This document shows positions 15,441 to 55,390 of a stretch of 64,000 nt of DNA, one piece after another; the first letter of the stretch is position 1; the number at the start of each line of letters is the position of its first letter. Location: NCBI GenBank assembly GCA_044892525.1, contig CM097885.1:8496001-8560000 (forward strand), read 5' to 3'. The notes under the pieces are model-generated. The model worked only from the letters and a program-made list of their open reading frames with translations, was not told the origin of the DNA and searched no databases. The position numbers were made by a program, and so were the translations under genes. The stretch is from Schmidtea polychroa. Taxonomy: Eukaryota.

Positions 15441-15470
15441 TTTCGGAAAATATCAGTATATCAACAAAAC

Positions 15471-15864
<394 letters not shown>

Positions 15865-16132
15865 CACAAATAGATAAATAAAACAAATTGCTGACCAATG
15901 GCAAGACAATAAATGAAAAGAAAGGAAGAAGAAAATGGTCAATAATGCAAAGATACAAATATCAAAATCAAGCAAAATAAATAAATAAATAATTGAAATT
16001 TTATTATATTAAAACAATAATGAACATTCATAAATTGTACACTGGGATTATCAAATAATACTTTTGTAAAAATTATATTGATATCTGGCTTCACAAAAAT
16101 AATTCATCTTAATTTTTACAGGATTCAGTAAT

Positions 16133-26612: not shown

Positions 26613-28592
26613 CTATTTCCGTTCCTCAGCGAACACATTAACTCTATATTTGTTTGGCCCTGTTCTGTAATACTTATCTAGGGTAAATGTAGTGATGGGC
26701 CTACCCTCATCATCTAACATTCCTCCCTGGGCCGTTAAGATAATGTCCGCATTATCTCTTATACTACGTACCAGCTCGATTTTACTGTCTTTTATCAGCA
26801 TCCTCGTTTTGTTAAAACCTTTTGCCAATGCGAGATTTATTGTGTCGCCATCATTTATAAGCCTTCCAAAATGTCGGGTTAATTCCTTCTGCGTAATTTG
26901 CTCCTTCTTCTTTGGTATAATAAAATTGGGTTCCTCCTCGATTGCGATATCCGGTTCTGGTCCTAATTCGTCTATGTCCATATTTTCCTCTTCTTGCTCG
27001 TCGATTGAGAAATATTCCTCATCTGAGTCGAGGTCGCATTCCATTAGTTTTCCTGAATGGAATTTTGGTTCCTGTAATTCCAGTTTGACTGTTTTTTCAG
27101 GTTTTTGTATTCTCTCCTCTTCGACGAATATCACATCGTCATCACTTTCCATTAACTCATCTTCGAAGGTTCTGCGTGTCACATTCTTATTAAATTTCAA
27201 TTCGATTTGAGATGGTTCTATATAAATGTCTTCATCATCATCCGACATATCCTCCATACTACTTTCTTTAATGGGATATAATTGATCTTTTATTTGTTGT
27301 TCACTGAAGGCTTCTGAATCCCATTTAACACCTTCTTCCCATTGATTTTCTACGATTGCGTATATCACTTTGACGATCATTGTGGTTTACCATGCTGGGA
27401 ATGGTTCTGGTTCACGTAACATTCTATTTATACGTTTATCCTTGTCCCACTTTCTATGATGTCTGATTACCTGGTATGCCAGGTTGGACAATTTTATCTT
27501 GTGTGGCGCAACGTTTTTGACGTACGAGCACATAAATATATCTTCTGACATTTCTCTAACTCCCATAACATTGTACAGATCTAATATGAGAGCTCTGAGT
27601 TTCCCGATGATGTCGAATCCTACGACTATTTTTCCGCAAAGTAACTGTTGGATTTCTACCAGTGCTTCGTATTCGTCTTTATTTCCGATGATATTTTCCT
27701 TGTTGGCCTTCGTCTTCTCTGGATAGTAATGTAGTACTTTCGTTCTAGGTGTAATTTTCTCATCAAATATTGTTACACCTTTAAGATTCCGTAAGCTGAC
27801 CTCCACTGGCCTTAAGTTACTGTTGATGTCACACACTAGTTTCGCATCTACAAACATCACCAGATGATGTCTTTCTGCAGTGGACAGTTCCTTGTGAGTA
27901 AATGACATTTTTCTCCTGACGAAATCTCCATGCATATAGATGTTCGATTTGATGAGTTCCAACTGCTGAAATGGGTTTGGAATGGTGGGTACATATAATA
28001 TTTCGATTGCTATAACACAGGGTAGGCTGTTCATTTGGACTATCAGTTCGTTGTAGTCGTTTGGGACACTCCGATCATTTTTTATAGTTTTTATTGTTAC
28101 GGTGCAATTGCTCGTGGTGATTATTGGTATTCTTTGTTGGCATATTGCTACCTCTGTTTTTGTGATATGAAATAGGATTCGATGGGGCACTTCTTTTCTT
28201 GTTCTTGCAGCCTCCTCTGCTTTGGGGAATCTGTCATATGCTCCAATTAATTCTCGTAGTTTGACTCTTCTTGCCTCGTTAAATTTGACAAGATGCAATT
28301 CCCTTTCTTCTATCTCGATTTTCATATCATTGGGAATGCATACCTGATTTGGGAAACTGCGTATTGTAATAGGACTCCCATCAGTGCATATTTTATTTTG
28401 CAAGTTTTTATAAAAGCTGCCATAATGTTTCTGGAGCATGCAATGGTATTGGACATTTGATTTGGGTTTGAATTGTTTGCTCTGGGAATTGGATTGGTTG
28501 GATTGCATTTCACGCTTCGTTCTAAAACTAAAATATAAATTGACATGTTCAATGCGCATTTGAGGTCTGTCCTCATACGCTATCTTATACAT
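26613..28592 (-). pseudogene. Retroelement accessory ORF: DEDDh (REX4/ISG20-like) exonuclease fold plus acidic tail; one in-frame stop at 27387-27389
   Basis: The two ORFs are in frame (FPAW*TTMIVKVIY). VMFVDAKLVC...VEVSLRNLKGVTIFDEKITP...IQQLLCGKIVVGFDI..KLRAL parallels REX4 VALDCEMVG...RVSIVN..G.VLYD.YVKP...LLKGRILVGHAL.NDLKAL. Confidence 0.65.
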
Positions 28593-28593
28593 A

Positions 28594-29122
28594 TGTTACG
28601 GTGAAAGTAGATATTGTGGCAAATGTACACATTTTCCGGTAAATGTGCACATTAGCCTCCTCATTTGGGTAATGTGCATTCAACTAACATTTACAATTTC
28701 AAATAAGGGAAATGTACATTGAATTTTCGGTTCTTGTTTGATATATCAATAAAGACCATATACTCCGAGTTTATCCGACAATATATTCTGTCCCCCTATG
28801 GGTATTGCTGGCAAGGGTACATGTTGCGACATGTTGAATGTGACCAGTACCCTTGCTAGCAATACCCATAGGGGGACAGAATATATTGTCGGATAAACTC
28901 GGAGTATATGGTCTTTATTGATATATCAAAATACTCTTATTTATAAATTAACTAAAACATTGGATATTTATATATTTAATTTTAATTTAATTTTAAGTGG
29001 GGGGAAATATCAAACAAGAACATACATATACATTATATTCAGTTCACTTATACCTAACGTTTTGGGAAATGTACACATTTTACGGTAAAAGTGTACATTT
29101 CCCAAGATTGTACATTTACCGA

Positions 29123-29126
<4 letters not shown>
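28594..29126. mobile_element. Non-autonomous TGT...ACA element (Ginger-like termini) containing a long hairpin
   Basis: Imperfect TIR TGTTACGGTGAAAGT versus TGTTTCGGTAAATGT, subterminal AAATGTACACATTTT motifs at both ends, flanks CATA and TATA. Confidence 0.55.
28737..28930. repeat. Inverted repeat: 84-bp arms, one mismatch, 26-nt spacer
   Basis: 28737..28820 is the reverse complement of 28847..28930. Confidence 0.97.

Positions 29127-29206
<80 letters not shown>
29127..29206. repeat. (TA)n microsatellite
   Basis: About 40 TA units. Confidence 0.98.
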
Positions 29207-29262: not shown

Positions 29263-30090
29263 TTATACTGTTTTGGACATTGTATATTCCCCTGGTATAT
29301 ATTTATCCAAATGAAAATGCCCTGGTACACTTCTGACCAGTCGGTGCCGATACCGCTGTCTTTTCCATTTGTACTTTTTATAAACTTGCACACTAGTAAC
29401 AATTGCCAAAATTGCGAATGCTAACACACTTGTGGCTATTACGTAAAAAGGCCATTGTGGCTTACTTGCTTTCTTTTGAAAAACTTGTAATTCATTCCAG
29501 TTATTTATAATTATCGGTTTTCCTGTAGGTAATTTTATCAGTTTCCTATCTGACTGTCTTGGATTTTTCATTATCTATTTGTCTAACAGCTTTAAGTGTC
29601 GTTTTTCTATATATATTCGTTATCGTTTGTGATAATGGTTGTGTGGATATTGAATCTATAGTCATAGTTGTTATGCTGGTTGTTGATATATTTTTCCCTA
29701 TTAGTATTTTTACTCTAGGTCTGTTTATTGTGGTAGTTTTTATTCTCTTGCACCTTATCTGTGATGTGTCAATTAAGGTATTCCATTGTGCACAGAGTGT
29801 GTAATTAGTGTTAGGTTTTAGACATATGAATTCAACACTATCTCCTCTTTCAAATTCATCAGTTGATCTATTCTCAATTTTTCTCATAAGTTTAGGTATA
29901 TTGTCCCTAGTTTCTAGATATAAGTCTCTTATTGGTGATCTATTTAGGTTATATACTTTAATCTTATACGGTGAAATGTTGATTAGAATATCTTCAGCCA
30001 TGTGTTCTACTGAGTGTATGTTTTCATTGTTTATTTCTGTTGATCTACACAACCCTATAATTATTAGAAATGTCGTTGCCATCATTAGTG
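29263..30090 (-). pseudogene. Post-integrase type I membrane module: signal peptide, FN3-like domain, Thr-rich stalk, TM, basic tail (one frameshift at ~29560)
   Basis: MMATTFLIIIGLCRS, then LKPNTNYTLCAQW (FN3 LxPxTxYxV motif), TTSITTMTIDSISTQ, and WPFYVIATSVLAFAILAIVTSVQVY followed by KKYKWKRQR. Confidence 0.6.
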
Positions 30091-31223
30091 CTTTTTGTGA
30101 TCGTAATCCATATTTGTGAGGTGGTTTTTCTACTAACTCTGTTTCTGCTAATTTGTATCTATTAACATGTACTATTATAGGATCTTCATTTTTATGTTTT
30201 TGTAGATGCAGGTTTTCATGTACTACTTTTACTACTTCGTATGGTCCTTTAAATGGTCTTGCTAATTTAGTTGTTTTGCCTTTACCTACTTGTGGAGACA
30301 TAAGTCTTACCTTATTTCCCACTTTAAAATTATGAGGTTTGCTATTTTTATCGTAATCTGCCTTATATTGTTCTTGTCTAAATTTAACCTTTAAATTTGC
30401 AACTTTATATACCTCTTGTCCTCTCTCTTGCATTAATGTTACATAATCTGGCGCATCTAAATATTGTGATACTCGAGGCTCAAAAATTGTATCAATCGGT
30501 GTCGCAGGCTCTCTTAAGAACATTAGAAAATATGGTGAATATCCCGTTGTCTCATTGGGTGTGATATTATGAATGTATGTGCATTGATTAACGTATTCAT
30601 CCCAATCATTTTGATTTTTTCGCACAAACACTTAGCAATGTCCTATTGAATCTTTCTACTAACCCATCAGTTTGAGGGTGGTATGCTGTTGTGTTTATTT
30701 TATGCATGTTAAATATATTAGCTACTCTTTTTATAATTTCACTCATGAAATTTTTCCCTTTATCTGTTAATAGTTTTCTCGGTGTACCGATTTTAAAGAT
30801 TATTTTTTCTACAAGTAATTTAGCTACTCTTTCTGCTGTTTCATCTTTAGTAGGAAATGCCTCTGCCCATTTTGTAAAGTAATCGCTAAAAACTAGTATG
30901 TGTTTATTCCCATTAATTGTTGTGGGTAATTTACACAAAAAATCCATTGGTGATGTTGTAGCTGGGATTGGATGTAAAGGTGCTTTAGTTTTTGTTCCTG
31001 TATTTTTTCTAGTTGCGCATATTGTGCATGCATTACACCATCTCTTAACATCCTTTTTCAAATCGTCCCAGTAATATTTTTGCATCAATCTGCTTGCTGT
31101 TTTCCTACTTGATAAATGACCTCCTAGAGCACCATCGTGATATTGTAATAGAAGAATTTGCCTTAATCTCTGTGGTACTGCTATTAATTGTTTACCGCTA
31201 AAATCTTCAATAACAACTAACAT
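30091..31223 (-). pseudogene. Gypsy integrase (HHCC zinc finger, DDE core, GPY/F); frameshift at ~30620
   Basis: YHDGALGGH...CNACTIC, then MDFL...SDYFTKWAEAFP...TDKGKNF...YHPQTDGLVERFNRTL, then TTGYSPYFLMF and RPFKGPYEV. Confidence 0.95.
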
Positions 31224-31325
31224 TTTACAGATTTTATACTTTTGGTTAGTTCCTTTTTTATTTCTTCTCTAATCTTGAAGAGTTCTGGGTCTTTCATTTG
31301 TTACTCATATATTTCTATTGGTTTT

Positions 31326-33746
31326 TCAGTTACTAATGCAAAAAACTTCTAGTGCTCCTAACTCTGGAATTCGTGATAATGCATCTGCATTCCTGTTTAT
31401 TCTACCTGGTTTGTATACAATCTTTATGTGCATGTCTTGTATTTTCATTGCCCACTTTAACAGTCTACGGGATGTATCTTTATGTTTCCATAACACTTCT
31501 AATGGCTTATGGTCTGTTCGAATTACTACTTCAGTTCCATATATGTATGGTTTAAATTGTTTTAATGCAAAAACTATAGCATAACATTCCTTCTCAATTG
31601 TTGAGTACCTAATTTGTGCTCCTTTTAATGTTTTGCTTGCATAAGCTATTATATAATCTTTACCCTTTTCCTCTTCTTGTCCTAAGACTGCCCCTACGGA
31701 CTTCCCGCTGGCGTCTGTCATGACAATAAACTGTTTTTTAAAATCTGGGTACCTTAGTATCGGTGCTGTTATTAATTTTTCTTTTAGTTGGTCAAAAGCT
31801 TTTTGATGTTCATCTTTCCATTTCTTTTGTGGCTTGTTAATTTTATTATTAATATCCTGCACTATTAACACTCCTTTACTTTCTCCCTTTGTTTTAACTC
31901 CTTTAGTTAATTCGATTAGTGGTGCTGCTATTTTTGCATAATCTTGTATAAATTTACGATAATATCCTGTAAGACCTTGTTGTAATGTTTTTGGAACTGG
32001 AAATTTTTTAACTACTTCAATTTTATCGGGATTAGGTATTATACCATCTACTGTAACTATATGTCCTAAAAATAATGCTGAAGGTTCTGCCCATTTACAT
32101 TTAGTGGGTTTTTTTTTAATTCTCGCTTTTCTCAGTCTTTGTAATACATTTGCTATGTCTTTTAAGTGTTCCTCAAATGTTTTTGACGATATTAATATGT
32201 CATCCATATACACTGCGCAATGTTGTACATCTACTAATACTGTATTTATTAAACGTTGAAATGTTGCTGGCGCATTAGTTAACCCAAAAGGTAATCTTGT
32301 ATATTCATGTAAACCGTCCTCAATCACAAAAGCAGTTTTTTCCGCATCCCCTTCTTCCATTTGAATTTGCATGTAGCCTTTATTTGCATCTATTACTGTG
32401 AAATACTTAGTATCCCTAAGTTTATCATATTGTTCTTGTGCTCTCGGGAATGGGTAAGAATCTTTTACTGTTACGTCATTTAATTTACGATAATCAATGC
32501 ACATTCGAATTTCCCCATCTTTCTTTCTAACTGGTACAATAGGTGATGCCCATTGTGAAAAACTTTGTTTTATTACGCCTGCCTCTTTTAATTCTCTAAT
32601 TTGTCGCTTTATCTCTTTCCTCAGTTTATATGGTACACTATAGGATCTCTGTTTTATTGGTCTAGCATTCCCAGTATCAATTACATGTTTGATAATATCA
32701 GTATCTCCTAAATCAAATTCGTGTTTTGCAAAAACATCACTATATTCGTCAAGTAATATTTGTAGTTGTAGTTGTTGTGTTTCGTTTAGATAATTATTAT
32801 TTATTTTAATTTTATCATAAAATTTAATATTATTCGCTCTACTCTGTTCGACCATTCCTTCACTGACATCACTCGTCATCGACATCTCACATACTTCAAA
32901 TGTTTGCTCTAATTCACCTTTGAACAACTTTCCCAATTTTGTACCTTTATGAATTTTTACTTTATTCCTTTCGTAATTCGCGATTCTTATTGGAATTATC
33001 CCATTATTTGGAACTACACACTCGTCTGTTAACATTACATTATGATTTCGTGATATTGCCGTTTCAGGCTCGAAAATGAAAGTGTCCTCACTTTTAACAT
33101 TAACTTTTACTGGAATTATATGATCACTTTGATATTCTAATTCGAATGTCTCTAATGCAATTACCTCAGTAAATCTTGCGTCTTGATATATTGCTTTCCG
33201 TTTAACTGTACTATCCGTTAAATCGATTACACAGTTTCTTAACCTTCTTAGTATGTCCATCCCAAGGACGCACACGCATTTACATTCTGCTACTACCTTG
33301 AAGACATGTTCAACCACTTGATCTGAAAAGTGGACTGTTAATTCGATATCGCCTTTCAATGGTATGTAATGTGATGATAATGAAATTACTCTATCTCTTG
33401 TACTCACGATATTTTTCTTTTGATTTTCTGTTAACTGATCTTCACGAATCATAGAAGCTGCTGCTCCTGTGTCACATAATGCCTTTATTATCGTATTATT
33501 TATCACTATTTTTAGCTTAGGCCTTGCTTCATTTAACCTTTTTAATAAATCGTCAAGTTCTAACCCGTAACATCCATAAGTTTTCCTTGGAACACAATGA
33601 CAATTACCATTTTCACCTGGGATTCTAATTTCAATATTATTTCTCAATTCTGTCAATTGTTCTCTTTGATTATCATATAACCCAATATGTGGTTGCTCAA
33701 TATTTTCAGATCTGTTTGTGTCGTCCTCTTTCTCATTGGTGATCAT
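31326..33746 (-). CDS. pol: Gypsy Pol: aspartic protease, reverse transcriptase, RNase H
   Basis: LCDTGAAAS; WASPIVPVRKKDGEIRMCIDYRKLN; RLPFGLTNAPATFQR; YMDDILI; TDASG; YSTIEKECYA; TDHKPL; NADALSR. Confidence 0.97.
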   Translation of the reverse strand: MITNEKEDDTNRSENIEQPHIGLYDNQREQLTELRNNIEIRIPGENGNCHCVPRKTYGCYGLELDDLLKRLNEARPKLKIVINNTIIKALCDTGAAASMIREDQLTENQKKNIVSTRDRVISLSSHYIPLKGDIELTVHFSDQVVEHVFKVVAECKCVCVLGMDILRRLRNCVIDLTDSTVKRKAIYQDARFTEVIALETFELEYQSDHIIPVKVNVKSEDTFIFEPETAISRNHNVMLTDECVVPNNGIIPIRIANYERNKVKIHKGTKLGKLFKGELEQTFEVCEMSMTSDVSEGMVEQSRANNIKFYDKIKINNNYLNETQQLQLQILLDEYSDVFAKHEFDLGDTDIIKHVIDTGNARPIKQRSYSVPYKLRKEIKRQIRELKEAGVIKQSFSQWASPIVPVRKKDGEIRMCIDYRKLNDVTVKDSYPFPRAQEQYDKLRDTKYFTVIDANKGYMQIQMEEGDAEKTAFVIEDGLHEYTRLPFGLTNAPATFQRLINTVLVDVQHCAVYMDDILISSKTFEEHLKDIANVLQRLRKARIKKKPTKCKWAEPSALFLGHIVTVDGIIPNPDKIEVVKKFPVPKTLQQGLTGYYRKFIQDYAKIAAPLIELTKGVKTKGESKGVLIVQDINNKINKPQKKWKDEHQKAFDQLKEKLITAPILRYPDFKKQFIVMTDASGKSVGAVLGQEEEKGKDYIIAYASKTLKGAQIRYSTIEKECYAIVFALKQFKPYIYGTEVVIRTDHKPLEVLWKHKDTSRRLLKWAMKIQDMHIKIVYKPGRINRNADALSRIPELGALEVFCISN

Positions 33747-33755
33747 TATTTCACC

Positions 33756-35670
33756 CTATTCCCTTCGACTTTTCATCCGTTTGATTTCTTTATCGTGCTT
33801 CGCAGTGATCAAATATTTGGCTATGAATGGACATAAACATGCTATCATTTTATATGAATTACCAAAAACTTGTCTTAGTTGTCTTAACGAAACTAATGAT
33901 GAGCAAATCATTTTCAATAGTGCTACTGTATAATATATACCCAATATAGTGGAAAACGTATTTCCGAGAATCGCAAAATATCCCCATATGCTGTATAATG
34001 CTCTATACACAACTTTCTTGAAGTGCTCTTTTGATAATAATACATCAAAGTTGTAATTCCCTCCATAACTATTCTCGATGATTTTATTTACCATAATAGA
34101 AAGAACCTTTTCTTTTACATGAGGAAACAACATATGTTTTCTGGCGCTCTCTATCGCCTCTCTCGTATACATCCCATTGTTATCCATTTCGTTAACTTCC
34201 TGAAATTCTAACTTTTTCTCCAGTTCAGTTAATTCTAGTTTTTGTGGTTTAGTCGCTTCTTTTCTATCTGACATTGTAATCCACATATCATCATTTATTT
34301 TGTATAACGGATCTAATAGATTAGTACATTTATCAATTTTTGTCGGAACATAGTCTTTATCTGTTAATATCCTTGTTATTGGTTGGAGGTATACAGTTTC
34401 CCCTTTATACACTACTGGTAACTCGTTTGTGCACTTATTATTCGTTGCTAAAGATACGCTAACCGGTTTACACTGAAATGTTTGTATCACTTCACCGACA
34501 AATCTTGCAAATGTCCCTTTCTCTGCAAATAAAATTGGTGCCATTAAATCTGGGTTTGTGACTGCAACCGCCATCTTTGTTCTAAATATTTCTCTATTAA
34601 GTTTACAGTCGTTTGCAATAGTTGCTTGGTATACTTTGTCTAATTGTACTAACTGATGATGATAAAAATAGTGGATTTTATTATTAAAATATGACGCTAG
34701 CTTGACATCGAATTTGTCTATTTTCGATTTTGCCTCTTTAATTTCACTTCCGCTGATATAAATTCCTTCATAATTTGTTTGTATGACTGCTTTTCCACAT
34801 TTAATACTTTCACCTTTTCCCACAAATCTCATCGCTTCTGTTTCAGAATCTGACATGTATAATATACATTGTATATTGTTGGTGTATCTCTCTCTTGAAT
34901 TATCGTTGCTCGTCGTTTTTGGTCTTTGATGTTCTTGGATTCTACATCCGTGAACTGTGTACCTCGAATTGTTCTGAATTTCAGTGTCTTTAGTTTAGTT
35001 AAATGGCATTCATATTGGTTTACTTTGTATATGATCATTGACTTGCCTGTATCACAGCTTGTCTCATCTAATGTACAGAACTTATGTGTCATCACTTTCT
35101 TTGATGAACTATCAAACGACGCCTTGAATTTCCTTAATTCAATATAATATTGTCTTCTCACTACAATATTGTCTGCCACATGCCCCCATATTTTATACGT
35201 TCCTCCTTCACAATATCCTCCCGTTGATGACCATCTAACGACATTTACTAATTGCCTTACTCGTGCTCCTACCTGAGCATTTAACTCAAATCCATCCGGC
35301 GTTTTTATCTTTTTTGTTTTAAATGCATTTTCACATTCGATTGGTGCTATTATTATCGCTTCTGGTGCCCATGTTGGAGTTAATATTGTTCTTCCTATTT
35401 TATTACACACAAAACTTTCCTCTGAATATTTAACGATACATTCTCCTGCTTCAGTGTGAATGAAGTCAGACTCTTGATATATGTGAAAAATCTTTGGATC
35501 TGCCACAATTAATTTTGTTGGATTAGCCTCTGGGCAATTTTCTACATCTAGTAATCAATATTTCTGTCCCCACTTGGGATTCTGACAGTCGTACGCTATG
35601 ATCGCATTATTTCCTTTTATCAGATCTAACAATAACGTTATTACTATAATTACTATTGACATTGTCGACT
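33756..35670 (-). pseudogene. env: Chuvirus/gB-type (class III) envelope glycoprotein lying upstream of pol; in-frame stop at 35555 and frameshift at ~34850
   Basis: Signal peptide IVIIVITLLLDLIKGNNA, then IIAYDC..., Y*LLDVENCP, GYCEGGTY, GEVIQTFQCKPVSV...CTNELPV.Y.G..VYLQPITRIL, and the TM region WGYFAILGNTFSTILGIYYTVALLK...QVFGNS. This is the motif order of chuvirus-like glycoproteins. Confidence 0.85.
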
Positions 35671-35789
35671 TTCTTTCTTTTTGACTTGGTTTCTTAGTTG
35701 TTTTATTTACTAGATTTTTTACTGTCTCCTCCGTGTCATCTATTTCTACATTAATATTATCTTCTACGCTTTCCTTAGCACTTTCGATT

Positions 35790-36437
35790 AGGCTCTCATC
35801 ATACAGTATTTTCCATCCTCCCTTTAATTTCATCCATAGCATAGCATCTATCTTTAGTTTATTATATATCATTTTAGCAATATTTTCTGTTTGATTCTTT
35901 GGATTCATTCGCAAAAGTTTCTTGTATCTTGCTATTAAATATGCCATTGACGTAATCACTTTATCCCGATTGACTCCTGTTGTCAGGCCCGGCGTGAGGC
36001 GGGTACGATGCGTGATTTTCACGCAGGCGCCACGGCGGAAAAATACAAAGGCGGCAAAATTGTACAGAAATTTGTTATTTTCATAACAATTTCCATTCTA
36101 TTGTTTAATAACTAGTCCAATTTGAACAATATTATTCCATCTGTGAAAAATATTTATGCATTTATCGTTTTTTTTACTCTTATTATGGAATGCGAAGGCG
36201 GTAATATGCAATTTTCACACATCATCTGAAACTCTAGCGCCGGTGTTGCCTGTTATGAATAATATGTTTAACACTGTCCCTTCATTTGCTTCCTCTGCAC
36301 TCAATTCTCTAGTCTCTTTCTCCATTAATTAAATCTTTTTAACTATATTTTCTATTAACGCTGATGGTTTTGCTTCCGGAAATCGTCTCATGTTCATTGC
36401 TTTAATTAACTCTGTTATCATATTTATATCTTTATCA
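35790..36437 (-). pseudogene. Bcl-2-like domain in the retroelement polyprotein, split by a MITE
   Basis: After removing 35984..36248 and one TSD: VLNILFITGVNRDKVITSMAY...ENIAKMIYNKLKIDAMLWMKLKGGWKIL, aligning without gaps to the Bcl-2 BH1-BH2 span. Confidence 0.65.
35984..36248. mobile_element. hAT MITE inserted into the Gypsy ORF
   Basis: Imperfect TIR CAGGCCCGGCG / CGCCGGTGTTG, 8-bp TSD CCTGTTGT / CCTGTTAT. The reading frame is restored on removal. Confidence 0.85.
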
Positions 36438-37200
36438 TCATCCTGACTTTTTTGGAACTTCCTGTCTCATATTATTTGCAATATTTCTTAAACGTTCTGC
36501 TGTCTTTCTGTCATCTGACTTTTCAGCTATTTCAGATTTTCGAGGCCTCCCTCTACCTCGTCTCATCGTCTCTGCATCCTGCATATTTGCTAGTTTCGCT
36601 ATTTTTTCTATTGTCTCATGTAAATTGTCATATTTAGTATCGATAGGTTTAAAGATTTCATCGCTAACTGTTGGTGACTTCATTGCCCCTCCTGAAGAAG
36701 CATCCCATACTCTAAATAATTTATCATAGTCATTTTCGTCGTTTATACTCAATTCTACAGATGGAATTGATGTATCAATTTCATTACTTTCTTGCCTTTC
36801 TATTACGGCAGAAATCATATTGTTCTCAATGACGTTTACCCCATAGTCGATTATATATTCGTTATTCATCATTTTTACACCGTTAAAATACAGTTTCACT
36901 TTATCATTATCTCCCAATTTCTCGGGCCAATTAGCTCTGGCCATCTGTTTCACTTTATTCACTTTTGTGCAAACATGTACCCCTGTACTACGCATAAGTG
37001 TTCTCAAAAGGTCCTTTGCCTCAATAGTTATATTCAATGACTCATGTAATTTCTGATTTTTTCTCACAAATTCACCATAACATTTTATCATTTCTTTCAA
37101 TTTTATTTCTAATTCAAATACTCTTGTCTTTTTACCATTAATGGTATCAAATTTCTCAAAAATTCTAAGTCAATTCCTTCGACTTGAACTTTATTCATTA
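36438..37200 (-). pseudogene. N-terminal part of the retroelement polyprotein, function unknown; contains an AT-hook-like RRGRGRPRK
   Basis: 220-aa ORF colinear with the rest and joined to the Bcl-2-like part by a frameshift in an A run at ~36450. No gag capsid or CCHC motif recognised. Confidence 0.55.
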
Positions 37201-37299: not shown

Positions 37300-39125
37300 A
37301 ATTATAGCTTGGGGGTCATGTAGGAATTTTAAGAGTTATCATTTTAAAATCACATAAAAATCTGAATTAGTGAAATTATTGATAAATATATAATTTTAGG
37401 GGGGGGGGGTCACATATACACACACATATATATACATACATATATATACATATATAAGTAGTCTATATTAGTGTAATTATTGATAAATATATAATTTGAG
37501 GGGAGTAATTTGGGAAATTTAAGAATTATAATTTTAAAATCAATATATATATTTAAGTAGTCTGTATTAGTGTAATTATTGATAAATATATAATTTGAGG
37601 GGGGTCATTTAGGAAATTTACAATTTATATTTTTAAATATAATATAAGTTGAATATATATTAAGTTAACCTAATCTACCATACTTAGATAATGATTAATG
37701 ACTATGATTTTGAGGGGGGTCATTCATAAAAATTTACAATTTACATTTTTTAAATAAAATATAAGTTAAATATATATTAAGATAAGCTAATTTAGTATAT
37801 TTAGGAGGTGTTGATGACTATATGGTTTATGGGGGGGGGTCTTTGATGAAAATTTTCAATTATAATTTACCGGTAATCTAATTTAAGTATATATATATAA
37901 AATAATCTAAATTAATGGTTTTAGGTAGCGGTTAATGGTTATATGAATTGAGAGGGTTATTTATGAAAAAATTTCTAAATTTCTATTGTAAAGGTAATGT
38001 AAGTTAAATATACATGTAAAATAGTCTAAATTACTACATTTAGATAATAATTAATGGTTATGTGCTGTGAGGGGTTATTTAATTTGATAACTGTAAATAT
38101 ATAAGTTAATTAATTACTATATGTATTGTTCTCGATTAATGTATAGTTTGAGGGGATTACTTATGAAAAAATGTAAGTTATTCTTTTCCGAATTTCAAAT
38201 ATACATATATAAGTTAGATTATGAATCTGAACATTTCTTTCGACGATTACGTAACTTTGGGGGTCGTTTATGAAATATTTACAACTTATTATGAGGTTAT
38301 AGATTATATTTTTTATCGCTAACGTAGTTTATATTTTATAATTTATGGCCAAATTAAGATTATAATTTATACTCTTACAGCTAATACAAGTTTATAATTT
38401 ATATTTTTATGAAATTAAATTTATTGTTTATATTTTTACAACTAATATAATTTTATAATTTATACTTTTAAGTTTATAATTTATATTTTTATGAAATTAA
38501 GATTATAATTTGTACTTTTATAATTAACTTAGAGTTATAATTTATAATTCTATAATCAATATAAGTTTATAATTTATATTTTTATGAAATTAAGATTATA
38601 ATTTGTACTTTTATAATTAACTTAGAGTTATAATTTATAATTCTATAATCAATATAAGTTCATGATTTATATTTTGAAGAAATTGAGATTATAATTTATA
38701 CTTTTATCAACTTTTAATAAACTTAGAGTTATAATTTATAATTTATAGTCAATATAAATTTGTAATTTATATTTTTAGGAAATTAAATTTATAATTTATA
38801 CTTTTATAACTAATTATAATTTATATTTTTATGAAATTAAGATTATCATTTATACTTTTATAATTAACTTAGAGTTATAATTTATAATTTTACAGTCAAT
38901 ATAAATTTGTAATTTATATTTTTAAAAACTTAAATTTATAATTTATACTTTTATAACTAATTATAATTTATATTTTTATGAAATTAGGATTACAATTTCT
39001 GCTTTTATAATTAACTTAGAGTCATAATTTATAATTCTATAATCAATATAAGTTCATAAATTATATTTTGAAGAAATTAAATCTATAAATATAATTCTAT
39101 AAATATAATAATTTTATGAAATTGA
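37300..39125. repeat. AT-rich tandem arrays (diverged units with G runs, then a ~27-bp TTATAATTTATA minisatellite)
   Basis: TTTGAGGGGG motifs recur over 37300-38270. TTATAATTTATA(T/C)TTTTAT units run over 38330-39125. Confidence 0.8.
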
Positions 39126-46176: not shown

Positions 46177-46531
46177 TTCCGATATTATTAGTATGTATAG
46201 TGATAGCCAATCTGGCGGTGAATTACCATATTTTATTGGTAAACAGTACGGGTCAGGTTGGTTAAAAACAATAGGGAGATTTGCACTTCCTATTCTTAAA
46301 CGTATTGGTAGTTTTGGCATGAAAACTGCTAAAGATGTGATTATGAATGAACAGAAAATATTACCATCCCTAAAAACAAATGCTTTAGCTGAGTTAGGGA
46401 AGGTTCTACCTGGAGTTGCTGGTATGTTTCAAAAAGATACACCTCCAGCCCCAGCTCCAAAACGTAAAGGACATGGAATATCGCGTATAAACAAACGAAT
46501 GAAAGGACATGGAACTATATTTGCAAAATGA
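46169..46531 (+). CDS. Polinton small core/cement protein (PW/pX-like)
   Basis: QSGGELPYFIGKQYGSGWLKTIGRFALPILK pattern and a basic C-terminus. Overlaps both flanking capsid genes (ATGA overlap with the major capsid gene). Confidence 0.75.
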   Translation: MANSDIISMYSDSQSGGELPYFIGKQYGSGWLKTIGRFALPILKRIGSFGMKTAKDVIMNEQKILPSLKTNALAELGKVLPGVAGMFQKDTPPAPAPKRKGHGISRINKRMKGHGTIFAK

Positions 46532-47751
46532 TTTGTGGTAAATCCGAATTATGTATATTTGATAGACCATCGCTCCAGGCTGTAATAGAATTTGGTGCCT
46601 TTGAGGAAGTTTTTCCTATGAATTCAATTACTGATAGTAGAAATGATATCGAGTTTTATATTAATGGTTCGCAAACTGAATATTTAGATTTGAACGATAC
46701 TTTATTGACTGTTCAGATCAAGGTTGTAGATAAAGATAGAAAGATTTTGGATGCCAATGCGGATGTATTACCAAACAATTTCATGTTTCATACTCTGTTT
46801 AAAGATGCAGTCTTGGGATTTAATAATATCAAGATTGAGGGCGGAAATAATACATTCATTCACAAGGCTTTGATAGAAACTATTTTAAATTACAATTCAG
46901 ATACTAAAAATACCTGTCTTACACCTATGGGTTATGCAGCAGCAGATGATGAAAGAAAAAAGTGGGTTAAAGGTTCAAAAGTATTCACTATGTGCTCATC
47001 ATTACAACTTGATTTTATGGATCAACCGAAATATTTACTACCGGGAGTTAATGTACATATTAGATTGAAAAGGTCCGATTCTGCATTGTCTCTTACTAGT
47101 GCAACTGGTGCACCAATATGTCAATTAGTTGATGCAAAATTATTGGTGAGAAGAGTTCGAGTAGACCCGTCAGTATTAGCTAATCATCAATTGGGTCTTA
47201 ATTCAAAACATGCAATTTATCCATTAAAAACAAAGGAAATTGTACAATTTGCTATTGCTAAAGGTGCTTCATCATTCTATAAAGAACAAATATTTGGTGA
47301 CAGAAGAATGCCTAATTTTATTCTGGTAACATTTCAAAGTGAAACGCAATATAATGGATCGTATACTGCTTCCAGCTCAATTTTCAAAACCTTTGGTGTT
47401 ACTTCATTGACTTTGTCGAAAAATACTGATTATAGAGAAACATATACTCAAGATTTCGAGAATGACAATTAGTGTGCGACATATATGCAGAGTATTGTTA
47501 GAAATCTTGGTTATTTAGATAAAAACTTAAATTGTGGAATAACTCTTGAGGAATTTAAAAGCAAATATCCATTTTTCACATTTGTTTTAGCTCCCGATTT
47601 TGATTTAAATCAGAGTCAATTACCGCAAAATGGAAATTTACGACTGGATATAAAGTTTGCAAAGGCCATTACTGAACCAGTACATGTTATAATATATGGA
47701 GTATTTGAAAATGAAGTTCAAATTACTGCAAATAGAACCGTGTTAGTATAA
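46528..47751 (+). pseudogene. Polinton major capsid protein (double jelly-roll, hexon); one in-frame TAG at 47470
   Basis: KSELCIFD...IEFYING...YLDLNDT...QPKYLLPGVNVHIRLKRS...GNLRLDIKFA. The ORF at 47485 continues in the same frame. Confidence 0.9.
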
Positions 47752-47829
47752 ATGTATACAGAAATATAGAAAGTTGTCATGGAGTAAGTTTTTCAATACT
47801 GTTTAATTTATTAAAGTAGTTCTGTTCAG

Positions 47830-48162
47830 GTCAATAGAATTGGAAAACAGATATTGGGAAATAAATTTGTAGGAGTTTTTCCTCTTGATAAAATCCCATA
47901 TTTAGATGTGAATCAAGCCATAATCGTCAATACTCAATCGTCTCATCTTGGTGGAGAACATTGGATTGCTATATATATGAAACCTAGTAATATATTCGTG
48001 TTCGATCCAATGGGTTTCTATTACCCTGCTTTGTTGGTATCAAAACTACAAACAATGGGGAAACCTATTGTATATAATAAAACAATGTTTCAAAATCCCT
48101 TGACACAAACATGCGGTCAACATTGTTTAGCTTGGTTGTTGTATAAAAAATTTGATGTTTAA
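47830..48162 (+). CDS. Adenain-family cysteine protease
   Basis: FVGVFPLD...IVNT...GEHWIA...FDPMG...FQNPLTQTCGQHC, with the catalytic H, D, Q and C intact. Confidence 0.92.
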   Translation, partial: VNRIGKQILGNKFVGVFPLDKIPYLDVNQAIIVNTQSSHLGGEHWIAIYMKPSNIFVFDPMGFYYPALLVSKLQTMGKPIVYNKTMFQNPLTQTCGQHCLAWLLYKKFDV

Positions 48163-48188
48163 TAAATGTATTTTGTATCCTTTGTTGT

Positions 48189-48195
48189 TGTTATT

Positions 48196-48255
<60 letters not shown>

Positions 48256-48297
48256 TTATTATTATTATTATTATTATTTTTATAATTATTATTATTA

Positions 48298-48337
<40 letters not shown>

Positions 48338-48352
48338 TTATTATTATTATTA

Positions 48353-48386
<34 letters not shown>

Positions 48387-48425
48387 ATTATTATTTTTAT
48401 TATTATTATTATTAATATTATTATT
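48189..48425. repeat. (ATT)n microsatellite
   Basis: Long TTA/ATT run. Confidence 0.95.
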
Positions 48426-48505
48426 TTTAATAAAGACTATACAATCATTGTGCATGCACAAAGTCATGACTAACAAAGATATGCAATCCCATTTGATACC
48501 ATTTG

Positions 48506-48589
48506 ATTGGCTGATAGAGGAAAAAGTATTCAGGAATGTGTCTTAATTCTGATTGGTTGAGACATGGAAATATTCCTGTTCTATATAAA
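48506..48589 (+). promoter_or_regulatory. Pol II promoter of the spliced pPolB gene: two inverted CCAAT boxes and a TATA box
   Basis: ATTGG at 48506 and 48552, both in TGATTGGyTGA context. TATATAAA at 48582. ATG at 48648. Confidence 0.6.
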
Positions 48590-48647
48590 CATTGACAAAT
48601 CTAAAATTTGTCATAATTATTCGTAAATTTACAAATTTTAAATTAAA

Positions 48648-49181
48648 ATGGACGCTGATTTACACAATATTTTGAATGCCATGTTGATGGGTGAAAATGG
48701 TAAATTATTTAGTTATTATTATTATTATTATTATTTATTATTTTAGAGAATTTATGGTACCAAGTGACCGAAGATGATTCAATTTTGAATGTTGATAGGA
48801 TTTTCGGTAAATTTAAATATTTTAATTTTTATGAAATTATTATTTTATTTAGAACCTATTATAATTAGCGACGATGATGATGTCGTGTTTATTGGGCAAA
48901 ATGATGCCCCGGATAATGATGCCTTATTTGTTAGGCAAAACAATGTTTTCAATAATCAAAGTAAATTTATTTTATTTTAGTATATTATTTTTTAAAAATC
49001 ATTTTAGTGTTTAATGTTGACATGGACGCCCTAATTAATAATGATGAGGAAAACAATATGGAAAATGCCCTCACTTCTATTGAGGAGAATAATGCTCACA
49101 TTTCTATTGATGAAAATAATGCCCTCACTTCTATTGAGGAGGTAGCTGATGAGGAATCTGATTCCGACCAGGAATCACAAT
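48648..49181 (+). CDS. 5' exons of Polinton pPolB (48648..48699, 48747..48806, 48853..48960, 49008..49181), spliced to 50288
   Basis: Three 46-47 nt GTAAAT...TAG introns plus a GTAAGC...ACAG intron (49182..50287). All are phase 1 and together give an open frame running into the ORF at 50347. Confidence 0.8.
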
Positions 49182-49571
49182 GTAAGCATTTATTTATTTT
49201 TATATTTCTTTAACAAAATTTTTAAAATTTTCTTAATATTTTTGTTTAAACATTTGCATAAATCTTATTCGTAAAATTATTATGTTTTTGAATTATTATT
49301 ATTGTAATTATGACGAAATTATGAAGAAAATACTATGATGGAAATTATAAAGAAATTACTATGATGAAAATTATGAAAATACTATGATGAAACTATTATG
49401 ACGAAAATGAAGAAAATTATGAAAATGTTATATTGAAATTATTATAACGAAAAATAGAGGAAATTATGAAATTATTATTTTGAAATTATGCAAACGTTTA
49501 AAAAAAAGTGATTAAGAAACTATAGTTTTAAAATATTCCTTGTAGTTTGCAATAAGCAACTACATTAGTTA

Positions 49572-49572
49572 A

Positions 49573-49642
<70 letters not shown>

Positions 49643-50011
49643 TATAATGATAATATATTATTTTAATGATAATAATATATCTTGTAGTCTGCAGTGAGCA
49701 TGCAGCTGCATCAAACTAATTATTTATTATGTAATAAATACCCTTTATTAAATGTAGTCTGCATGCAGCTGCATCAAACTAATTATTTATTAGGTAATAA
49801 ATACAATCTTTAAATGTAGTCTGCAGTGAGCATGCAGCTACATCAATAATAATAATAATAATAATAATAATACTAATATTTTTATTCCATACATATACTC
49901 TCTTTATAATAATAATATAATTTTAATATTTTAATATGTTTAGTTAGCATGCAACTAAAGACTCTTATTATATAAACATGTAGGTTACAGTGAGCATGTA
50001 ACTACAGAAAC

Positions 50012-50085
<74 letters not shown>
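49572..50085. repeat. (AAT)n tracts interleaved with short palindromic motifs inside pPolB intron 4
   Basis: AAT runs at ~49572-49640, ~49845-49871 and ~50011-50085. Confidence 0.9.
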
Positions 50086-50087
<2 letters not shown>

Positions 50088-50287
50088 TCCCTATTATAGT
50101 TTACAAGACTTTATTAATATTTTACAATTATTAATATTTACTTCATTTTTATAATGTATTTAAATGAAACATATATCAATAATTGTAAAATCCTTATAAG
50201 AACTAAATGTTAAATGCGTAAAAGAAATATAAATGATATATAAATACAATTTCATGATTAATATTAATTGATAAATATAATTAACAG

Positions 50288-53200
50288 GCAAATTTTATCC
50301 ACATTACTGCCAGGCATCAACTGGTCACTCAAAATTATGTCACAAAGTGATGAAAAAATATTATGGTTGTAAATTTTATGGCATCAAGTACTATATATGC
50401 CCAATATGCGAGACTTCCCATAGTATTAAATATTTAGAGTTTTACAGTATACATAAATCCCATTTAAATCAGTTCTCTTTAAATAAAAAGGATTTATTTA
50501 ACAAACTGCGAAATACCTCAAAACCTGTAAATAATACAAAACCTAATAAACCTGTAATTAATATTACAAAACCTGTAATTAAAACTAATGTAAATAATAC
50601 AAAACCTGTAAATAATATTACAAAACCTGTAAATAATATTACAAAACCTGTAAATAAAACTACTACAAAACATATAAAACCTGTAAATAATATTACAAAA
50701 CCTATAATTAATAATGTTATTAATGTAAATAATAATTTAAAAAGACCTGCTGTTAGTATTGGGTCTGATGCTCCCTCTAAAATTAATAAATTAGATCAAA
50801 TAACTGACAATGATGTGGTTAATAATATTCAAGTAGGCGGTTCAGTCGATATTGACGATGAACCTGAAATCGAAATTGATTTTAAGGGGGTTCGAAAGAA
50901 TATACGATTTAATGTAGAGAAGGATAACATCATTCAAATAACCATAACCGATAAAATCGTTAATAAGTTAAATCATGAAATAAACAGAATGGGGTCGGTG
51001 AAAATACAATTCTCCGTATTGATTCAATTTGAAAAAGATGGTGAAATTAAAGATAATTTCTTCTCGAATAGGGCAGAGGCTTTTTCAGTTAGTTTTCTAA
51101 GTGAGGGGGTTCACAAATTAAATAATAAAATAGAAAAATTCACATATTTGGGTAGTGGATGGCGGGTTGTTAAAATCAAAGAAATAGATTTTATATTAAC
51201 AAAATTTACACATATGAATAGGCTAGCTGGACATAGTTATATCCATTAGTAAATGCATTAGTAAACGTTAAAAACACTGATGATATGTGCTTTATATATA
51301 GTATTTTAGCACTTTTAAAACGTAATGTAGTACATATAAATAGAAATAGAGTTAGTTCCTATCAAAATTATCTTGACGAGTTAAATTTTGACCCCATTTC
51401 CGACTGTCCAATGAAATTATGTGATATTCCTAAATTCGAGATGAAAAATAAGGATTTAAATTTAGCAATAAATGTTTTAACTTATAGAACGACCTCAGCT
51501 AAGCCTTTTGAAAATATAGTTGACGATAATTATATTCCACATCATCCCAAATTGGATATAATTCACCGATCTAAGGTTATAGGTGGTGAACCCCTATACT
51601 TACTTTTATTGGAAGACGGTGATAATTTTCATTACACCGCAGTTTTTAACTTACAAAGATTAATGAATTGTCACTCTAGCAGTGAATGCGGCGTTAGAAT
51701 TAAAGTGAACTGGTGCCCCCATTGTCTCAATGGTTTTCGACATGAAAAAGCATATGATATTCATGTTGCACTTTGCAGTAAGAACCAGATATGTACTACT
51801 TTATATACCCTACCTAAAGATAAAAATTTAATTTTTCAAAATTATGCGAAAACCATAACCCCACCATTCGTGATATATGCAGACTTTGAATCAATTTTAC
51901 CGGGGGATATAATACACCATCAAAAGCATTTGCCAATAACAGCAGGTTTATTATTAATAAATAATTATAATAACTCCAAATTTTATTATGAGTTTGTTGG
52001 GGATGATTGCATCTTATCTTTCTTGCGTAAGGTGGAGGAAATTGCTATGACAATTGTCCTGCCATATTACGAAATTAATGGGAAAAAGCCCATGCAAACC
52101 TTGTCTTTCGCTGAAGAGCGGGCCTTTCGTGATTCCAGAACCTGCTACCTTTGTAAAAAATTTATTAGAAATAGAGTTAGGGATCATTATCACTTTTCAG
52201 GTAAGTATCTTGGTGCTGCCTGTAGGAAATGTAATGTTTCGCGACGAATTCAGAAACATTTACCTGTGGTTTTTCACAATTTGAGGGGGTATGATCTTCA
52301 TCATATTTTGAAGTATAGTTTGAATAATTTTCCTTCTTGGGAATTAAATATTATTCCGACCACTACCGAGAAATTCATCTCCCTCATAGTGTATATTAAC
52401 AAACTGTCTGTTCGTTTTATTGACAGCATGCAGTTTGTTAATTCTTCTTTAGCAAAAGCGGTTAAGACTCTTTCCGATCTGCCTTTAACTTCTTCTGTTT
52501 TCGATGGCGCAATTGTTCGAGCCAAAGGTATCTTTCCTTATGACTTTGCCACATCTCTTGAGGTTCTGGAATCAACTCTTGAATTGCCTCATATCTGGGA
52601 TTCTGTGTCTAATGATGAATATGCATTAGCCCAAGTTATTTGGACTCAGCAAAACTGCAATAACATGTTAGATTACATGTTAACTTACCTTAAATTAGAC
52701 GTGTTTCTCCTCGCAGACTATTTTCAACAATTCCGTGAAAAGGCCATTGCATATAATGGTCTTGAGCCTCTTAATTTCTATGGCATTCCCGGTATGTCAT
52801 GGGCCTCTGCGCTTATGACATTAACGGAACCCATTGAACTTTTGCAGGACATGGAAATGTTTAATTTCTATGAAGGAGGGATACGGGTTGGGTTAACATT
52901 TGTTAACAAACATTATGTTGCAAGTTCTGAAGACACAGAACTCTTGTATATTGATATTAATAACTTGTATGGTTGGGCCTTAAGCCAAAATCTGCCTTAT
53001 GCTGACTTAGTTTGGGTGTATGATGATCTTGATTCTGTCTTGAATGAATGTATGAATGCTGATATCGATAACCTTCCATATGGTTATACAATGGAGGTAG
53101 ATATCGATATACCTGATTGTTTGCATGACTTTCTGAATGATTTTCCGATTGCTCCGGAAAAGATGTGCCCGCCAAATTCTAAAGTTGAGAAGCTGATGCT

Positions 53201-54409: not shown

Positions 54410-55006
54410 GCGATTTTAATATCTTTTTCCTGTGATAAATTAATATAACTTTGTAAAAACATTGATTTGTGTTGATTTTTATTAATGAAAAGTTTTCGTA
54501 TTTCTTTCTATGGATAAAAATCATTATATTGTGTAATATTATTAAACATTCCTTAAGTGTTTAAACATAGAAAGTATATTAAAAATTGTTTTATTATTGA
54601 AAACTAGTAATGTTGTCACTATGGATTAGGACTTTGTTTTGAGCCATTAAAAGAATTTAAATTTTTATAAAGTTTTATTATTTTTATTTAATTTGATAAT
54701 ACTGTTCATATTTACTTTAGTTTGCAGTGAGCATGTAACTAAATATCTTTGAAAAAAAAAATAATAATAATAATATGAACAGTACCCATGTGACTTGTTG
54801 AGTGTGAGTAGTACCCTTGTGTGCAGTACCCATAGGGGGACAGAATATCTTGTCGGATAGATTATATATGATAATAACAACTTCCACGCGTGCGTTAATA
54901 TTTTAAAAGAAAATATTGAAAATTAAAAAAATAATAATAATATGTAATCAACGATTTAAACAAAATTATATTATTACGTATTCAATAATTAAAACAAAAT
55001 TATTAG

Positions 55007-55390
55007 TTCTAAAAATATTAGGCACCATTCTAAAAATATTAGGCATCGTTCTAAAATTATGACGTAATCATTCTAAAAATATGTGGCATCGTTCTAAAAT
55101 TATGACGTAATCATTCTAAAAATATGTGGCACCATTCTAAAAATAAGAGGCACCATTCTAAAAATATTAGGCATCGTTCTAAAATTATGACGTAATCATT
55201 CTAAAAATACGTGGCACCATTCTAAAAATAAGAGGCACCATTCTAAAAATATTAGGCATCGTTCTAAAATTATGACGTAATCATTCTAAAAATATTAGGC
55301 ATCGTTCTAAAAATATTAGGCATCGTTCTAAAAATATGAGGCATCGATTACGTAATAGTTCTAAAAATATGTCATCGTTCTAAAAATTTT
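55007..55390. repeat. Polinton subterminal tandem array, 18 units of mostly 21-22 bp beginning TTCTAAAA
   Basis: Unit variants TTCTAAAAATATTAGGCA(CCA/TCG), TTCTAAAATTATGACGTAATCA and TTCTAAAAATAAGAGGCACCA. Confidence 0.95.

Follow-up and report, generated by a model that had tools for sequence, protein, structure and literature searches.

A planarian gag-env-pol Ty3/gypsy endogenous retrovirus with a Bcl-2-like domain and a single long reading frame

A 64,000-bp stretch of the Schmidtea polychroa genome (contig CM097885.1, positions 8,496,001 to 8,560,000; hereafter the window, numbered from its first base) carries a damaged retroelement on its minus strand, at positions 37225-26551. The element is identified here as a planarian gag-env-pol endogenous retrovirus of the Ty3/gypsy type, in which gag, a Bcl-2-like domain, an envelope glycoprotein (Env), the polymerase enzymes (Pol) and a membrane segment located after the integrase follow each other in one open reading frame (ORF1), with a second frame (ORF2) behind it. 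We put the probability of this identification and of the ORF architecture at about 0.85. The design of the family, as observed in its other genomic copies, is a single ORF1 of ~3,050 codons, and what survives in the window is the dead fossil, truncated at both ends, of one member of a young, high-copy family.

The single reading frame and the family in the genome

The Bcl-2-like region, used as a protein query against the whole genome, gave 150 scored matches, 11 of which are placed in stop-free frames of 3051-3090 amino acids. The same frames were recovered with the post-integrase region as the query; from gag onwards they take in the Bcl-2-like domain, Env and Pol and reach the membrane domain behind the integrase. 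In addition, nine further copies were fetched with their flanks and aligned to the window. Two of these nine are open throughout and three more show a single interruption (frame continuity across the ends of the stretches was derived by arithmetic). The first-pass annotation, made from the letters of the window, had proposed that the intact ancestor encoded one polyprotein. At the level of the ORF this is borne out by the 11 open copies, but the proposed layout was incomplete, as gag is also in frame; it was missed because the window copy is truncated at its 5′ end.

In the window, the glycoprotein frame stops with a TAG (33758-33756) and an ATG follows nine bases on, in the same frame, exactly as had been read in the first pass. 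This env-pol junction codon is a sense codon in all 11 other distinct copies. A single in-frame TAG, beyond which pol goes on in frame, is what would be expected of a programmed read-through stop of the gammaretroviral gag-pol style, which would keep the Pol to Env ratio low and regulate the two separately. Such a signal is very improbable here, in view of the sense codons of the other copies and of the remaining damage of the window ORF1. In detail, comparison with an open copy maps seven in-frame stops, at 36331, 36217, 35557, 33758, 31328, 31307 and 31271, the last three directly upstream of the integrase, and about five frame changes, near 37125, 36450, 34865, 30625 and 29573. These are the single stops and frameshifts by which the minus-strand ORFs had been described as joined. 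With sense codons at the junction of all 11 other copies, and six further stops and about five frame changes in the window ORF1, the TAG is a private lesion of this copy and no read-through signal.

The association of env with pol was examined with a 2.5-kb env-pol probe, for which the genome held 489 first-look candidates. The 40 matches that were scored are all 94-100% identical, and 38 of them cover the whole probe; because the segment recurs in every scored match, the association is not due to chance. For a Ty3/gypsy element the gene order is atypical, and no LTRs (long terminal repeats) delimit the window copy; these features could point to an Env/Bcl-2-like region that reached its place next to pol by nested insertion, as part of a chimeric assembly or in a single recombination event. 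This origin is scarcely credible, however, as the junction is contiguous in the 40 scored copies and in every other copy examined, near-identical LTRs and target-site duplications bound the full copies, and the whole span is one open frame in 11 scored copies. Moreover, subfamilies with only 44-57% protein identity retain both the Bcl-2-like and the post-integrase parts, with ratios of nonsynonymous to synonymous substitution rates (dN/dS) of 0.13-0.28. The view of the first-pass annotation that env and pol are not separate insertions is thus upheld, and the reading of one ancestral frame is retained.

Full copies of the family are ~13.56 kb long. Their LTRs measure ~1075-1081 bp and are 98.1-99.9% identical within a copy (six copies). 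In the four copies inspected for their termini, the LTRs end in TG..CA, a motif resembling a primer-binding site (PBS) and starting with TGG lies 2 nt past the 5′ LTR, and the 3′ LTR has a purine tract in front of it. Target duplications of 4 bp are clear in three of these four copies; the fourth sits in a TA repeat. The Pfam domains of pol, both in the window and in the open copy, are found in the order RVP, RVT_1, RT_RNaseH, Integrase_H2C2 and rve, that is, the Ty3/gypsy order with the integrase after the reverse transcriptase. Based on this order and on the published placement of related elements of S. mediterranea (in the part of PMC13524379 consulted), the element would belong to Ty3/gypsy (Metaviridae).

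A genome-wide pattern search with the complement of the PBS-like motif, allowing up to one mismatch, gave 2,109 sites, versus none for the reversed control. Among the 100 sites printed, those that could be compared are located ~2.4 kb upstream of Bcl-2-like matches, where the PBS lies. In some regions the copies show a regular arrangement. On one contig (C1) element copies recur ~53.9 kb apart, three times (near 71.09-71.20 Mb; also near 6.36-6.44 Mb). On another (C2), near 60.02-60.03 Mb, there is a head-to-tail pair of copies 12.56 kb apart, whose shared 3.6 kb are 99.97% identical. Because of the regular spacings and the near-identical pair, these arrangements suggest that segmental or tandem duplication adds to the copy number beside retrotransposition.

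The extent of the window copy was determined by blastn of the nine other genomic copies, by tblastn of the open-copy proteins and from the LTR positions of full copies. The alignment of the nine copies shows homology from 37221 to ~26551, and stop-to-stop ORFs of the minus strand tile from 37169 to 26613. The first-pass annotation had placed the element at 29263-37200; ORFs do tile that interval, but the element continues to ~26551 and includes ORF2. At its upstream end the copy picks up the polyprotein near residue 477, so that the 5′ LTR and the capsid/CCHC part of gag are gone, and at its downstream end only ~170 bp of the 3′ LTR remain. A search for LTRs within the window found none, which is due to the truncation of this copy and does not reflect their absence from the family. 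An additional ~266 bp, at 35983-36249, are absent from all nine aligned copies, and the stretch at 28439-29201 is divergent. Over the shared segment the window copy is 94.6-95.5% identical to the nine others, which are 95.5-99.9% identical among themselves. Tandem repeats of 99 bp and ~93 bp lie directly upstream of the truncated 5′ end. The composition of the window is AT-rich (GC 0.21-0.40), and the host genome comprises 781 Mb with four very large contigs.

Domains of ORF1 and ORF2

The first methionine of the open-copy ORF1 is at residue 25. The N-terminal gag region contains one CCHC knuckle (PF00098 zf-CCHC, E = 2.5e-4), which aligns to the HIV nucleocapsid. Against the assignment of this part to gag stands the lack of any Retrotrans_gag or capsid family in the Pfam search of the N-terminal part of the open copy; similarly, the search of the gag region against the PDB gave only nucleocapsid zinc knuckles, with E = 0.05 or worse.

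Gag is followed by a linker which, in the better-preserved copies, is of coiled-coil, SUMO-like and AT-hook composition. In the window, the linker occupies 37225-36450 and corresponds to residues ~477-738 of open copies. It includes a weak SUMO/ubiquitin-like match at 36902-36837 (PF11976 Rad60-SLD, E = 0.046-0.049, scoring 14 bits where the cut-off is 23.8) and an AT-hook-like RGRGRPRK at 36563-36534 (AT_hook, E = 1.1). For linker residues 385-745, the protein atlas returned nothing usable.

The next part of ORF1 had been named Bcl-2 in the first pass, and this call is now supported at the level of the fold. The window copy gave a Pfam Bcl-2 match with E = 0.007 at 36097-35555. The C-terminal half of the domain is found at 35986-35780, with a BH1-like motif at 35977-35951 and a BH2-like W..GGW motif at 35836-35813; its N-terminal half is disrupted by the ~266 extra bases, and the stops at 36331 and 36217 fall in this region. 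In the open copy, the match to PF00452 has E = 5e-5. An alignment of six natural sequences from subfamilies 44-100% identical shows that the BH1-like GVN...VIT and the BH2-like PWI..KGGW blocks are invariant in all six, down to 44% identity. The profile of these six sequences was searched against the PDB, and all 60 listed matches are Bcl-xL or Bcl-2 structures, with a best E of 0.0057 and an alignment running from BH1 through BH2. The AlphaFold2 model of the domain, built on these six aligned sequences, is all-helical, with a mean predicted local distance difference test score (pLDDT) of 59.5 and a predicted template-modelling score of 0.55. With Foldseek, all 50 listed rows belong to the Bcl-2 family (E = 0.007-0.05, probability 0.97-1.00, template-modelling score to the query 0.36-0.48). 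VIA-align, which is independent of Foldseek, was run against 48,161 representative chains, and its first 26 are all members of the Bcl-2 family (Z 8.7-5.4, 104-134 aligned residues); this top set includes Bcl-2 proteins of Hydra, Trichoplax, Trichuris and schistosomes, as well as several viral Bcl-2 homologues. A hydrophobic segment is positioned ~50 residues past the domain.

Each of these statistics is, on its own, below threshold (Pfam 24.2 bits against the gathering score of 31.4; PDB E of at least 0.006; pLDDT 59.5; Foldseek E of at least 0.007; Z 8.7), and VIA-align itself warns that Z below ~13 is common for helical proteins. In addition, no Bcl-2 protein came up when a single sequence of the region was run with phmmer against 1.84 billion representatives. 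These points weigh against the Bcl-2 fold and are what would be seen if the region were a helical linker of chance resemblance and with no role in cell death. Such a linker is nevertheless improbable: only the Bcl-2 family occupies the top ranks of the PDB profile search, of Foldseek and of VIA-align, the alignment spans BH1 to BH2 with the W..GGW motif invariant in the subfamilies, and in the text of Arkhipova & Yushenova (2019, PMC6431247) available to us Burro-2, -3 and -4 are reported to carry a BCL2-like motif in the equivalent position, upstream of env. As four differently built tests and the motifs agree, the region probably has a Bcl-2 fold. The sole phmmer match, a 2678-residue protein without Pfam domains that aligned in seven short stretches, was judged to be of low complexity. 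A protein-database search with the linker/Bcl-2 region, confined to proteins of 895-2851 amino acids, gave no match, which says little.

Between subfamilies, the dN/dS of the Bcl-2-like part is 0.13-0.23, and within them it is about 1. On account of the between-subfamily values, the domain was maintained by selection during the divergence of the lineages.

Env follows in frame. It is preceded by a hydrophobic segment (internal signal or anchor) at window positions 35668-35612, with a Kyte-Doolittle score of 1.96, which in the open copy is found at residues 908-926. The ectodomain is located at 35611-33987, interrupted by the stop at 35557 and the frame change near 34865, and the transmembrane region at 33986-33885 (hydropathy 1.79); the latter lies near residue 1477 of the open copy and is succeeded by a tail of ~70 residues. 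The claim that the glycoprotein belongs to a known fusion family is confirmed: the window Env matches PF24664 Monjiviricetes_fusion with E = 4.2e-70 (34994-33756) and E = 2e-8 (35554-34829), and the open-copy Env with E = 5.4e-90, covering positions 4-636 of the 653 in the profile. In a protein-database search, Env retrieved two PF24664 proteins without a name, one 51% and the other 37% identical. By analogy to the published AlphaFold result for Smed_errantivirus_3, whose Env is 84% identical (in the part of PMC13524379 consulted), Env would be a class III-type fusion glycoprotein of the Monjiviricetes/chuvirus/gB-like kind. Its ectodomain of 550 residues has no N-X-S/T sequon, as compared with 3.7 expected from 5000 shuffles (P ~0.018).

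The pol domains lie within 33755-31326, with the protease at ~33530-33240 (RVP, E = 1.5e-6), the reverse transcriptase at ~32531-32055 (RVT_1, E = 4.9e-33) and the RNase H at ~31820-31434 (RT_RNaseH, E = 1.5e-36). The integrase, with its zinc-binding domain, rve core and C-terminal part, extends over 31268-30140 and contains the frame change near 30625; its Pfam matches are found at 31268-30606 (Integrase_H2C2, E = 3.7e-19; rve, E = 4.3e-9). Respective values in the open copy are 9e-36 for RVT_1, 1e-37 for RNase H and 9e-18 for Integrase_H2C2.

In the frame of pol and after the integrase, a membrane-protein segment is found at 30139-29263. Its parts are, in order, a signal-like stretch (30091-30047), a beta domain of ~90 residues (a putative beta-sandwich, at ~29989-29744), a stalk rich in T/S, a transmembrane helix (29454-29380) and a basic tail. 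In the open copy this last helix is strong, with a hydropathy score of 2.19, and the interval between the last two hydrophobic segments holds a cluster of five N-X-S/T sequons. Aligned with one another, five natural sequences of 55-100% identity show conservation of the signal-like stretch and beta domain, and also of the juxtamembrane region, transmembrane helix and tail (YKKYKWKRQRYRHRLV...), the last being nearly invariant. The stalk is variable: some copies that are 99% identical in the Bcl-2-like part share only 78% here, with the differences concentrated in the stalk. The dN/dS of the post-integrase part between subfamilies is 0.18-0.28, and within subfamilies the values for the Bcl-2-like and post-integrase parts range over 0.5-1.5. 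Judging from the between-subfamily ratios, both parts are under purifying selection.

The AlphaFold2 model of the segment has a pLDDT of 50, with eight strands at residues 43-134, a block in which pLDDT is mostly 60-79 and dips to 42 at residues 81-90. Foldseek placed beside it many fibronectin type III (FN3) domains, for instance those of Dscam, neogenin, NCAM2, CDO and IFNAR2, together with other Ig-like sandwiches. The first-pass annotation had called this an FN3 membrane protein. The low-confidence beta-sandwich model is consistent with that, but FN3 is not established, and an "FN3-like" ectodomain is regarded as plausible. What speaks against it is that the call depends on a pLDDT-50 model and on Foldseek rows which are weak and non-significant (E = 0.007-0.02, template-modelling score to the query 0.14-0.22); in the segment, Pfam gave no FN3 match even at E up to 10. 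The protein-database search, restricted to proteins of 782-2491 amino acids, gave no match, which again says little.

ORF2 is located at 28595-26613 in the window, as determined by tblastn and from the other copies, with an in-frame stop at 27389. In other copies it encodes 699-786 amino acids in a different frame after ORF1 and extends ~105 nt into the 3′ LTR. Pfam gave no match on ORF2. With phmmer against the PDB, 77 residues of ORF2 matched ISG20 (1wlj, E = 5.3e-4) and also ISG20L2 (E = 0.01); this exonuclease-fold region is positioned at ~27800-27570 of the window, and the C-terminal part is long and acidic. The protein atlas pointed to RNase_T clusters (0.86-0.88), as a lead only. In the alignment, F stands under the histidine of the ISG20 "GH", and K under Asp94, which we take to be a catalytic residue with this number. 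As positions presumed to be catalytic in ISG20 are not conserved, the exonuclease-like domain of ORF2 may be non-catalytic.

A putative polytopic polyprotein

The arrangement of hydrophobic segments suggests a mechanism for the expression of ORF1. The genomic RNA would be translated into one polytopic polyprotein of the endoplasmic reticulum membrane, with Gag, the Bcl-2-like domain and Pol on the cytosolic side and the two ectodomains in the lumen. Cleavage behind the two signal-like segments would fall to signal peptidase, and that of the cytosolic junctions to the protease of the element. The Bcl-2-like domain could then delay the death of the producing cell, and Env would mediate entry and, perhaps with the FN3-like protein, spread from cell to cell. 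We consider the chances of this mechanism to be even. Topology and cleavage are proposed from hydropathy (Kyte-Doolittle, 19-residue window, threshold 1.6); four hydrophobic segments are found at the expected places, and the five sequons between the last two are a further hint of topology. Two points count against the scheme, namely that the third hydrophobic stretch is under the threshold and that the production of the polyprotein, its insertion into the membrane and its cleavage are all deduced from the sequence.

The single ORF may be real and still be expressed in another way, with Env, the FN3-like protein and ORF2 made from spliced or internally initiated subgenomic RNAs and the giant polyprotein as a minor product. 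ORF2, being in another frame after ORF1, needs some such route, and an ATG is present 9 nt past the junction codon. Furthermore, Gag, Env and Pol are not normally equimolar in retroviral particles, and equimolar production would be unusual for a retrovirus-like particle. On the contrary, the frame is kept continuous over every domain junction in 11 scored copies, which is hard to explain if it were never translated through. Contigs from four runs of unrecorded type cover most of the stretch, and in the three of them guessed to be RNA there are no informative joints, which is given no weight for or against expression or splicing. Subgenomic expression, which also counts against the polyprotein scheme, is therefore held to be rather unlikely, and translation through the whole of ORF1 is the preferred reading.

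A more specific proposal is tentative and, on balance, doubtful. According to it, the element would be a polytopic-polyprotein retrovirus with a conserved type-I membrane protein (Ig/FN3-like ectodomain on a hypervariable T/S-rich stalk) in frame after the integrase, with the anchor of the Bcl-2-like domain doubling as the signal of Env, with two different proteins for the surface, one a class III fusogen and the other serving attachment, from one translation, and with an ORF2 carrying a captured ISG20-like accessory fold.

Surrounding sequence and related elements

The plus strand of the window carries a second mobile element of another kind, at 46468-58267. Among its ORFs, one (51237-53762) has a match to DNA polymerase B of the protein-primed type (PF03175, E = 4e-25) and another (57590-58267) to an Ulp1-type cysteine protease (PF02902, E = 1.3e-4), a pairing typical of Maverick/Polinton elements. 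The other large ORFs of this interval (46468-47472, 50281-51249, 53708-54409 and 56247-57059) gave no Pfam match. On the minus strand, the open frame at 23345-22857 encodes a haem-binding domain like that of cytochrome b5 (PF00173, E = 3.9e-7); lying shortly past the point where the retroelement is cut off on its 3′ side, this frame is probably an exon of the host. Short-period satellite arrays are placed at 7033-7536, 15466-15900, 37444-37641, 38299-39123 and 48190-48430. Those near 15.5 kb and 48.2 kb share sequence with each other and with arrays flanking several other copies of the element.

The closest published parallels in layout come from S. mediterranea. The Burro elements are described in the consulted part of Arkhipova & Yushenova (2019, PMC6431247) as having a 4,873-residue ORF1 with an N-terminal Gag with CCHC knuckles, a SUMO-like domain (PF11976), a BCL2-like motif and accessory ORFs. 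Their env lies in frame between the BCL2-like motif and the protease and matches mononegavirus fusion glycoproteins; a dUTPase-like domain is located between protease and reverse transcriptase, and AIR1, Smc, MATH_TRAF_C, BIR and ankyrin motifs are also listed. The elements exceed 30 kb, with an internal region of up to 25 kb. By description, which is the only basis of this comparison, the present family resembles Burro in its one ORF1, Gag/CCHC, BCL2-like domain, in-frame env before protease, reverse transcriptase, RNase H as well as integrase, and accessory ORF. In contrast to Burro, the ORF1 is of 3051-3090 amino acids and has one CCHC knuckle. A closer kinship is opposed by the size, 13.6 kb versus more than 30 kb, and by the dUTPase-like domain, which was not detected in the interval between protease and reverse transcriptase, where only a foamy-virus linker of that position matched. 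None of the AIR1, Smc, MATH_TRAF_C, BIR, ankyrin and dUTPase-like families was found by Pfam at E up to 0.05 on the open copy. Because of the smaller size and the undetected accessory motifs, the family is classed as a compact relative which shares the core layout of Burro and is not a member of it.

A second set of relatives is formed by the errantiviruses of Chary & Hayashi (eLife 2026, PMC13524379), of which we rely on the accessible part. Errantiviruses of Platyhelminthes, Nematoda and Bryozoa are there described as GAG-ENV-POL, with an ENV of the herpes simplex virus/gB type. Smed_errantivirus_1-6 are listed with this order and with 45, 215, 3, 8, 1 and 1 intact copies, respectively, and no tRNA primer is listed for the Smed elements. 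They have in common with the present family the planarian host group, the gene order and the type of Env. The printed Env fragment of Smed_errantivirus_3 shares 205 of 245 aligned residues with this family (~84%, counted by eye; 40 differ). On this Env identity, the family is placed as a sister of Smed_errantivirus_3 and not as the same entry. The source treats GAG, ENV and POL as three ORFs, and its main text, as far as seen, makes no mention of a polyprotein, a fused or single frame, a frameshift or Bcl-2.

Outside planarians, env similarly comes before pol in non-canonical metavirus endogenous retroviruses of nematodes, which captured their glycoprotein from an RNA virus (Sacco et al. 2022, J Gen Virol 103:1739, known to us through its citation in PMC13524379). 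Atlas virus, a belpaovirus of Ancylostoma ceylanicum, encodes Gag-Pol-Env as one stop-free polyprotein of 2828 amino acids (Merchant et al. 2022, in the consulted part of PMC9094657). It is likewise an LTR element with a captured RNA-virus fusion glycoprotein and a single polyprotein frame, but belongs to BEL/Pao, has the order Gag-Pol-Env and a phlebovirus-like class II Gn-Gc, and lacks a Bcl-2-like domain. Anakin and other mosquito BEL/Pao elements carry a Chuviridae-type glycoprotein (Dezordi et al. 2020, as mentioned in PMC13524379). Anakin is thus another case of a chuvirus-type gB-like glycoprotein captured by an LTR retroelement, and differs in superfamily and host.

The first-pass annotation had regarded the architecture as unusual. 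The layout is indeed unusual, but it is already in print for Burro and for the Smed errantiviruses, as far as these sources were seen, so that the gag-env-pol single-frame architecture is a published feature of planarian elements. Our literature search returned no report of a Bcl-2 homologue in LTR retroelements outside planarians, and the 2019 review was the only relevant paper found on Burro and Bcl-2. The consulted text of that review has no fibronectin and mentions transmembrane and exonuclease domains only for the rotifer Terminon, although features given only in its figures could escape such a reading. No published description was found of an FN3-like post-integrase membrane protein, of a Bcl-2 anchor doubling as Env signal or of an ISG20-like ORF2.

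What is added here is the census of open frames (at least 11 scored copies), the recognition of the junction TAG as a private lesion, the fold support for the Bcl-2-like domain and the purifying selection on two accessory parts. Two leads are added, namely the FN3-like membrane protein encoded after the integrase and the ORF2 with its resemblance to ISG20; a retroelement-borne relative of an interferon-stimulated antiviral exonuclease would be worth a closer look. An element that threads a capsid, an apoptosis regulator, an RNA-virus fusogen and replication enzymes through one frame bears on how retroviral envelopes are acquired. The same layout also bears on how the somatic stem cells of planarians cope with infectious-like elements, and both points are already in print with Burro in 2019 and with the Smed errantiviruses in 2023/2026.

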